From an uncultured Clostridia bacterium (GTDB taxonomy: Bacteria; Bacillota; Clostridia; Christensenellales; UBA1242), in contig CALVML010000003.1 in assembly GCA_944345705.1 (NCBI GenBank), positions 1,981 through 65,980 on the forward strand: a stretch of DNA of 64,000 nucleotides, written 5' to 3'. A program made the translations under genes and the position numbers. The notes beneath the pieces are model-generated. The model made no database searches. It saw nothing but the letters and a program-made list of their open reading frames with translations, and was not told where the DNA came from. Of this stretch, positions 26,005 to 26,124 are shown one piece after another; positions within the stretch are counted from its first letter, which is position 1; every line of letters starts with the position of its first letter.

Positions 26005-26124
26005 GCTTGTTTTCATTTTAACGGGATATTAGAAGGGCAAGCGTTGCTTGCCAAAACCCGAGGGTTTTTAATTTTTAAGCGGGCTTAAAAATTCTTCTAA
26101 TATCTAGTTAAAATGAAAGCAAGC
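26005..26124. other. 120-nt nested-palindrome element (roughly 29-bp outer stem enclosing three abutting GC-cored hairpins) in the parE-parC spacer
   Basis: 26005-26035 pairs with 26094-26124, with one G-U pair and a 2-nt bulge on each side. The inner hairpins are 26036-26052 (GGCAAGC/GCTTGCC), 26053-26068 (AAAACCC/GGGTTTT) and 26070-26093 (AATTTTTAAGC/GCTTAAAAATT). Confidence 0.6.

Follow-up and report, generated by a model that had tools for sequence, protein, structure and literature searches.

What does a long, almost completely paired palindrome do between the two subunit genes of a topoisomerase, and why is its centre found in both orientations? The question is raised by a stretch of 64,000 nucleotides from an uncultured Clostridia bacterium (contig CALVML010000003.1, positions 1,981 to 65,980; here, the window), in which positions 26005-26124 form a 120-base nested palindrome in the spacer between a ParE-type and a ParC-type gene. 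The palindrome consists of a single outer stem around three abutting hairpins and has the shape of a four-armed cross. It is a single-copy, lineage-specific element under constraint in the topoisomerase IV spacer, and strains of one species carry its core in either orientation.

Fold of the palindrome and orientations of its core

A sequence-only reading of the window had described the 120-nt sequence and its structure, and both were borne out by sequence and fold. The RNA minimum free energy of 26005-26124 was -59.8 kcal/mol with z = -11.55, a value equaled by 0 of 200 dinucleotide shuffles, and folding with DNA parameters gave the identical four-way fold on both strands (-40.3 and -38.1 kcal/mol; z = -11.6 and -10.3). 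In a 120-nt sliding fold across the whole window, the palindrome and the stretch 239-325 were the two extreme outliers (-51 and -48 kcal/mol) over a background with a mean of -18.9 and a standard deviation of 5.9 kcal/mol. The four-way fold was retained by all of the sequence variants compared (13/13).

The inverted-repeat arms, to which no strand is assigned, are 31 nt each and 91% complementary, the left arm at 26005-26035 pairing with the right arm at 26094-26124. The outer stem that they form has 30 pairs, two of them G.U, and one 1x1 mismatch (26023/26106). The long stem of the sequence-only reading is thus real, and its detail of one G-U pair and a 2-nt bulge is replaced. Positions 1-17 and 23-31 of the left arm are almost invariant, while positions 18-22 are variable and hold the conserved mismatch, which is retained at arm position 19 in 12 of 13 variants. 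Between the arms lies the 58-nt core (26036-26093, likewise without strand), which folded alone with z = -4.2 and was matched in structure by 0 of 200 shuffles. Hairpin 1 (26036-26052, GGCAAGC-GTT-GCTTGCC) opens the invertible core in the orientation of this strain, termed flip; its stem is constant in the 13 variants, with the loop GTT, or AAC or AAA in inverted copies. Hairpin 2 (26053-26068, AAAACC-CGAG-GGTTTT) is followed by T26069 and the T-rich 5' side of hairpin 3. Hairpin 3 (26070-26093, AATTTTTAAG-CGGG-CTTAAAAATT) closes the core with an invariant 10-bp stem and a loop of CGGG, CGAG or CAGG, or the complement of these in flop copies. T26069 is the sole unpaired junction base, in keeping with the three contiguous hairpins and at most one unpaired nucleotide previously described. 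The T-run missing after the outer stem was also noted correctly, the next bases being AGTAAAACAGC.

The same spacer was collected from metagenome contigs (L numbers) through identical or related ParE proteins. When these spacers were aligned, the flanks and both arms were colinear, and the 58-nt core was the exact reverse complement in some strains. The flip order of hairpins, 1-2-3, was found in the window, L001-3, L007-L011 and L043, and the flop order, 3'-2'-1', in L004-6, L012-15 and L101. After normalization for orientation, the flip core of L011 was 1 nt from the flop cores of L006, L012 and L013 and 4 nt from the other flip cores, and the flop core of L004 was 2 nt from L011. Flip and flop were intermixed on the parE and parC trees. 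These core distances, together with the interspersion on the flanking-gene trees, favor at least two inversion events. An identical flop allele was present on backgrounds that differ at 31 of 1953 parE sites (1.6% flank divergence), and the orientation was constant within each palindrome haplotype across samples. For these two reasons the inversions are probably rare mutations and not the work of a fast programmed switch.

Mis-assembly across the inverted repeat is an extremely unlikely source of the two orientations. Inverted repeats can tangle de Bruijn graphs, and the low-coverage contig L031 does end inside the left arm, but the arm mismatches limit exact repeats to 12-26 nt, which is shorter than the k-mers used (31-87). 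Both orientations were moreover recovered from independent samples with different assemblers, flop in L004, L005, L014, L015 and L101 and flip in the window, L001-3, L008, L009 and L043, and the orientation co-varied with core single-nucleotide polymorphisms (SNPs). Since exact arm repeats do not exceed 26 nt and each orientation recurs across samples and assemblers, the two orientations are not taken for assembly artefacts. The end of L031, in the left arm (L031 2061-2089) two bases short of the arm-core junction, is as expected where inverted repeats break short-read assembly graphs and is uninformative on switching.

Two details of the alleles concern the way in which the core was reversed. 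In the L004-type flop allele, the inversion coincides with the erasure of the mid-arm mismatch (TGGG/CCCA), so that the mid-arm is now perfect, and hairpin 1 of the sister lineage has a loop that appears to have been inverted on its own (CGTTG to CAAC-). Spacer inversion with homogenization of the arms, recurrent and favored by long arms, is the reported signature of template switching (PMC8604942; PMC8794818; PMC5941160), and the inversion and arm details observed here fit such an origin. The inversion shares with the quasipalindrome events of the Ripley type, described in yeast and rRNA (PMC8604942; PMC8794818) and in proteobacteria (PMC5941160), an exact reverse complement between conserved arms, the correction of an arm mismatch in one allele, here together with the inversion in the L004 type, long arms, and a course that is probably recurrent and reversible. 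It differs from them in that 58 bp with an internal structure were inverted, compared to the 2-5 bp reported, in that both forms are common in one bacterial species, and in that the mechanism is here deduced from the pattern.

Constraint, distribution and copy number

The 239-nt intergenic gap (25982-26220) has the length previously given for it, and the palindrome lies 23 nt past the ParE-type gene and 96 nt ahead of the ParC-type gene in a window with 33% G+C. The upstream gene (24029-25981, plus strand) encodes a type IIA topoisomerase B subunit of 650 aa, matched by NCBIfam GyrB/ParE models with E values of about 1e-266, and the Pfam domains HATPase_c, DNA_gyraseB, Toprim and DNA_gyraseB_C were found on proteins identical to it. 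The downstream gene (26221-28707, plus strand) encodes the A subunit of 828 aa and has no GyrA-box motif. Absence of the GyrA box is a mark of ParC rather than GyrA, and the parE/parC label is supported on this ground. The 23 nt from the parE stop codon to the palindrome (25982-26004, plus strand) are 87% identical between the two lineages compared below and include a TATG/AGG polymorphism beside the left arm. The downstream spacer (26125-26220, plus strand) is A-rich and unstructured and carries the parC ribosome-binding site GGAG at 26212-26215. Its block AACAGCAAATTCA (26130-26142), directly 3' of the palindrome, is kept between the two lineages, whereas the remainder of it shows 50-57% identity. 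An 11-nt deletion variant in L006, L007 and L010 lies farther downstream than this block. Since a scan of 26125-26220 gave no promoter-like site between the palindrome and parC, the palindrome is probably transcribed within a parE-parC mRNA. A small open reading frame (ORF) of 17-18 codons that starts in the right arm was rejected as a coding explanation: it has no ribosome-binding site, its changes between the lineages are mostly non-synonymous, and it is altered by the 11-nt deletion variant. Directly after parC, an A-rich low-complexity tract at 28699-28890 contains copies of TTAAATAAAAAATAA at a 15-nt period.

The palindrome is lineage-specific. Within the species (ParE identity of 99-100%) it was present in all 18 sequences, with spacers of 226-240 nt, and in a sister lineage (ParE identity of 97-98%, nucleotide divergence of 13-14%) it was present in all five complete contigs, with a spacer of 227 nt; L031 is the sixth contig of this lineage. 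Six related species groups (ParE identity of 88-92%) had no palindrome and unstructured spacers of 34, 49, 82-101, 112-114 and 191-192 nt, and one more species (ParE identity of 89%) had a 255-nt parE-parC spacer with a non-homologous palindrome of the same design. The short spacers of relatives have only the ribosome-binding site in common with that of the window. As they share no sequence with the flanks of the palindrome, an empty insertion site cannot be defined. Unrelated sequence in relatives, no similar element elsewhere and transcription that reads through had together been named in the sequence-only reading as an outcome that would refute it. Most relatives indeed have unrelated sequence in the spacer, but the sister lineage keeps the palindrome and look-alikes exist elsewhere.

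Between the main and the sister lineage, the palindrome is kept under sequence constraint, above the neutral rate. It is 85-89% identical (11-15% diverged) between them; divergence reaches 37-47% at four-fold degenerate sites and 32%, with insertions and deletions, in the spacer that follows the palindrome (Fisher tests, P = 2e-4 and P = 2e-11). A sliding comparison gave 78-93% identity across the palindrome, like that of coding DNA, and 50-57% directly after it, so that the conservation signal is confined to the palindrome and does not spread into the flanks.

Copy number was assessed by scans that required near-exact arms, with a draft metagenome-assembled genome as the representative genome. 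No second copy was found within the 64-kb window by a pattern search that allowed up to 3 mismatches, in which only the palindrome's own two arms matched, or by a covariance model with filters off. A pattern search of 185,579 species-representative genomes in GTDB gave one match, at the same locus of CALVNK010000010.1 (uncultured Clostridia bacterium isolate BRZ_B__bin17). JGI metagenomes gave 70 matches, mostly due to chance, and otherwise the same locus only; no related sequence was found in phage and plasmid collections by BLAST or in IMG/VR by pattern search. A family of MITEs (miniature transposable elements with inverted repeats) or other repeats was rejected because nothing but this locus and chance matches came out of these searches. 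No target-site duplication is present: the flanks are ...GAAAATAT / AGTAAAAC... (or ...GAAAAG / AGTAAAAC...), with no direct repeat of at least 3 nt. Of the marks of a MITE, the palindrome therefore has the terminal inverted repeats, and lacks multiple copies, a target-site duplication, and presence/absence polymorphism with neutral decay. The suggestion of an inserted miniature element, made in the sequence-only reading, is not upheld for an element that is single-copy, free of a target-site duplication, carried by every strain and conserved to a degree well above neutral. Its suggestions of an RNA processing or stability element and of a cruciform are both still viable.

Several other known kinds of element were considered for the palindrome. 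No Rfam 15 family reached its gathering threshold, and at a permissive E value only generic long-hairpin miRNA models appeared, at 10-23 bits compared to thresholds of 63-195. Membership in the repetitive extragenic palindromes (REP) and their composites (BIME, REPIN) was rejected for a palindrome found in single copy. An intrinsic terminator was rejected, as the outer stem is followed by AGTAAAAC and no U-tract, and a scan of 25700-26400 gave no terminator-like site. A T-rich tail is found only at the inner hairpin 2, whose stem contains three G-C pairs. A parvovirus-type terminal hairpin was rejected because in every contig the palindrome has an internal position, flanked by parE and parC, and because it has no viral or phage match. 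An integron attC site was rejected by inspection, since the TTTTAAC...GTTAAAA motifs sit mid-arm and do not fit the R''/R' consensus. Unrelated long simple palindromes sharing TTTTAGTGTTTCATTTTAAC..GGAACCAC..TCTGAAATGA in L067, L104, L107 and L113 surfaced only via the 11-mer of the scan.

Elements of the same architecture in the clade

The four-way architecture is enriched in this clade. A structural filter was run on about 114 kb of non-redundant clade sequence and on 470 kb of unrelated metagenomic and viral control DNA. It kept only folds with three or more branches, an outer stem of 9 bp or longer, no more than two unpaired bases in the junction, no more than 20% of bases unpaired and a free energy no higher than -25 kcal/mol. 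It yielded four elements in the clade DNA, E1 to E4, of which E2 is the parE-parC palindrome, and none in the control DNA (P of about 0.001; P = 0.009 counting E3 and E4 only). The cores of the four elements are 58-65 nt long and mutually unrelated in sequence. The covariance model R1, built from E2, was rejected as evidence of homology: the look-alikes scored 30-42 bits, but unrelated long palindromes scored 23-42 bits. As unrelated palindromes score as high, no common descent is claimed for E1 to E4, and the class is defined by the architecture filter alone.

E1 (window 239-325, plus strand) is the element whose design the sequence-only reading had seen as shared with the palindrome, at 239-331, and this likeness was confirmed. 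It is 87 nt long, with a 13-bp outer stem and three hairpins followed by TTTTTT, is unrelated in sequence to E2, and is flanked upstream by a 166-aa gene and downstream by a polysaccharide deacetylase gene. Its hairpin order was fixed, with no inversion among 10 strains; the loop of hairpin 2 is GTGTAG or ATGCAA, and an A/T run in hairpin 3 differs in length. E3 (L117 5052-5130, also in L118-L127) occupies the 255-nt parE-parC spacer of the other species and has a 10-bp outer stem and three hairpins in 79 nt. No inversion was found among its 11 strains, and a lone stem SNP was found in L118. The absence of inversion in the short-armed E1 and E3 agrees with inversion at a rate that varies with arm length. 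E4 (L114 1532-1636, L115 1540-1644 and L116 1528-1648) is 105 nt long, a 20-bp outer stem enclosing three hairpins, and is situated where peptidase S8 and murG genes converge. Preceded by GAAAAA and followed by ATTTTTT, it takes the place that a bidirectional terminator would have. In the corresponding spacer, the L117 species has only a simple hairpin (AAAAAGACT...AGTCTTTTT). The location of E1 and E4 at expected terminator positions hints at a use of the design at the RNA level.

Other repeats of the window are of different kinds. A perfect 46-bp direct repeat (39806-39851 and 45321-45366) corresponds to the 3' part of a tRNA-Arg(CCT) gene (45323-45397, minus strand), and its copies enclose several ORFs that match no family, along with a tyrosine integrase in two overlapping ORFs, 43924-44649 with the N-terminal SAM-like domain and 44628-45212 with the catalytic domain. 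The region 39806-45397 looks like an integrated island of about 5.5 kb with a frameshifted integrase. A 42-nt inverted repeat pair (33841-33882 and 53717-53758), 88% complementary and 19.8 kb apart, has one copy inside or beside a radical-SAM gene and the other in an intergenic position. An ORF of 2042 aa on the minus strand (57763-63891) contains internal repeats with a period of 567 nt (60328, 60895 and 61462), corresponding to tandem domains of about 189 aa.

Possible role of the palindrome in the topoisomerase IV operon

The explanation that we favor, tentatively, is that the palindrome is a selected, orientation-independent structural module, probably carried in the parE-parC transcript, whose core inverts rarely by template switching. 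Two imperfect 31-bp inverted repeats flank a 58-bp core of three self-complementary hairpins, and because the arms are inverted repeats, the core would now and then be copied in the opposite orientation, by replication template switching or an equivalent recombination between the arms. The two alleles, flip and flop, that both persist in the species would be its outcome. Co-transcribed in the parE-parC mRNA, the palindrome would form a very stable, almost fully paired four-way junction that could uncouple the two cistrons whichever way the core points. It might do so as a barrier to 3' exonucleases that protects the parE mRNA, as a long double-stranded stem offered to RNase III, or as a partial block to transcription. 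For RNase III, a processing site is a stretch of double-stranded RNA, about 20 bp or longer, in a transcript that is cut in vivo; the palindrome has a predicted 30-bp stem with one internal mismatch. For a structural role of this kind, the orientation of the core would be close to neutral.

Several observations weigh against this explanation. The roles in transcription, processing and stability are inferred from DNA sequence rather than from RNA measurement. Covariation gives no support for constraint at the RNA level, as 40 of the 48 pairs that make up the outer stem and hairpins 1 and 3 are invariant, with a covariation score no higher than in shuffles; paired changes occur in hairpin 2 only (AAAACC/GGTTTT, AAATCC/GGATTT, AAACCC/GGGTTT and AAAAACCT/AGGTTTTT). 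Sites that depart from Watson-Crick pairing are about evenly divided on the transcribed strand, approximately 3 G.U to 4 A.C, and show no strand bias toward RNA over DNA. With invariant pairs and this even division, constraint on RNA and on DNA are not separable. The arms are conserved in sequence and not in pairing alone, and a protein-binding DNA site would also fit. The count of at least two inversions leans on a few core SNPs, and recombination between strains could mimic recurrence. The template-switch inversions of spacers on record span only 2-5 bp (PMC8604942), compared to 58 bp here.

The palindrome might instead have no function, as the decayed single-copy remnant of a MITE or the harmless by-product of repeated template switching that makes stems perfect, with neutral flips, which we consider unlikely, although several points speak for it. 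It has 31-nt terminal inverted repeats, is lineage-specific, shows no significant covariation and tolerates both core orientations; template switching can make and keep perfect stems without selection (PMC8794818; PMC5941160), and the enrichment of the design at unrelated sequences in the clade is what a clade-specific mutational bias would give. The palindrome nevertheless diverges 3-4 times more slowly than four-fold sites and the adjacent spacer, and correction of one arm by the other does not by itself slow divergence between lineages. No second copy appeared in any collection searched, there is no target-site duplication, and every strain carries the palindrome. Conservation of arm sequence beyond pairing, the lack of a G.U bias on the transcribed strand, the equal folding of both strands with almost no unpaired bases, which lowers the cost of extrusion, and a role independent of core orientation would all suit a DNA-level element. 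Such an element would be a cruciform extruded under negative supercoiling or a protein-bound duplex, acting as a supercoiling-sensitive block or binding site, and its location in a topoisomerase operon is suggestive. Extrusion and binding are predictions, however; E1 and E4 of the same design stand at expected terminator sites with flanking T- or A/T-tracts, which points to use as RNA, and most relatives manage parE-parC with a spacer of 34-114 nt and no palindrome. A DNA-level role is rated as rather improbable.

A programmed inverton, in which a site-specific recombinase flips the core and thereby switches ParC expression, is very unlikely, although inverted repeats do flank a segment found in both orientations. 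The segment also shows weak signals of a coherent design. A weak promoter-like match, TTGGCA-17-TAATAT (9/12; 26026-26054, minus strand), combines the TTGGCA of the core with the TAATAT of an arm and changes strand with the core. In the flop state it would use the TAATAT of the right arm and face parC, with the T-tailed hairpin 2 facing away; in the flip state it would run into parE in the antisense direction, and the parE transcript would meet hairpin 2 and its T-rich tail as a weak terminator. The promoter-like match and the terminator-like hairpin thus change strand in directions consistent with each other, and an invertible terminator switch is known in clostridia, that of cwpV, where the RecV recombinase acts on 21-bp inverted repeats separated by 195 bp (PMC2784873). 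The evidence against a switch is stronger than this coherent design. The promoter match reaches only 9/12, and such matches are no more numerous than in shuffles; the terminator stem of hairpin 2, with its three G-C pairs, fails the scan in the window's own allele; and each haplotype keeps one orientation, from sample to sample and over a flank divergence of 1.6%. No recombinase family was found among the genes within 10 kb on either side, with a trans-acting one elsewhere in the genome possible, and the nearest and only integrase of the window is the split one in the tRNA-Arg island 18 kb away. To our knowledge, 58 bp is far shorter than the segments inverted by recombinases. Distinctly improbable, too, is a broader alternative in which an undescribed clade class of four-way-junction palindromes, alike in structure and unrelated in sequence, is selected at gene boundaries and its members entered the parE-parC spacer of two species independently, the core of the long-armed E2 serving as a slow switch of ParC dosage through a redirected -35 element and a weak terminator.

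The selected structural module with a rarely inverting core has partial counterparts in several known systems. REP and BIME elements of enterobacteria, such as that of malE-malF, are extragenic palindromes within operons that fold in the mRNA, modulate how strongly the flanking cistrons are expressed relative to each other and, as DNA, bind DNA gyrase. They are about 35 nt long, occur in hundreds of copies with a consensus and are linked to RAYT transposases, whereas the palindrome is a single-copy, branched element of 120 nt in Clostridia. In the inverted terminal repeat of adeno-associated virus (AAV), a parvovirus, an outer stem surrounds small internal palindromes, and flip and flop forms arise by inversion of the inner part; it is an analogue of design only. 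The AAV repeat has two internal arms in a T shape at the end of a linear single-stranded DNA and depends on hairpin-primed replication and Rep nicking, while the palindrome, with three internal arms, is located between two housekeeping genes of a bacterial chromosome. Bacterial MITEs and modular repeats (Correia, RUP and the pneumococcal BOX A-B-C) are intergenic, about 100-150 bp long and stably folded, with terminal inverted repeats, and BOX resembles the palindrome in that complementary outer modules enclose inner hairpin ones. The members of each such family share sequence and occur in multiple copies, several families having target-site duplications, while the palindrome occurs once, with a sequence of its own, and is conserved above the neutral rate. 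The cwpV switch of Clostridioides difficile (PMC2784873) likewise has imperfect inverted repeats between a promoter and a downstream ORF, and its inversion alters the predicted RNA hairpins. Its 21-bp repeats lie 195 bp apart, are flipped by RecV and switch within cultures, in contrast to a 58-bp core with no recombinase within 10 kb, an orientation stable across diverged strains and weak promoter and terminator signals.

Palindromes between cistrons are an established idea, and the mutational process is known as well. No counterpart among the known systems has a flipping core of this size and internal structure, a single-copy and conserved status in a topoisomerase IV operon, or the four-way design specific to the clade. 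The locus is a clean natural case of a bacterial chromosomal inverted repeat that holds a structured 58-bp core in both orientations within one species, and it would extend template-switch inversion, known for a few bases, to a whole structural module. Pipelines that call invertons would label the palindrome a phase-variable switch, which calls for caution, and the case shows that an intergenic palindrome may be conserved without being a terminator or a mobile element. With its position in the essential topoisomerase IV operon and its recurring look-alikes, one of them at the same position in another species, the palindrome offers a tractable test of whether branched structures, as RNA or as cruciform DNA, may tune the expression of adjacent cistrons.

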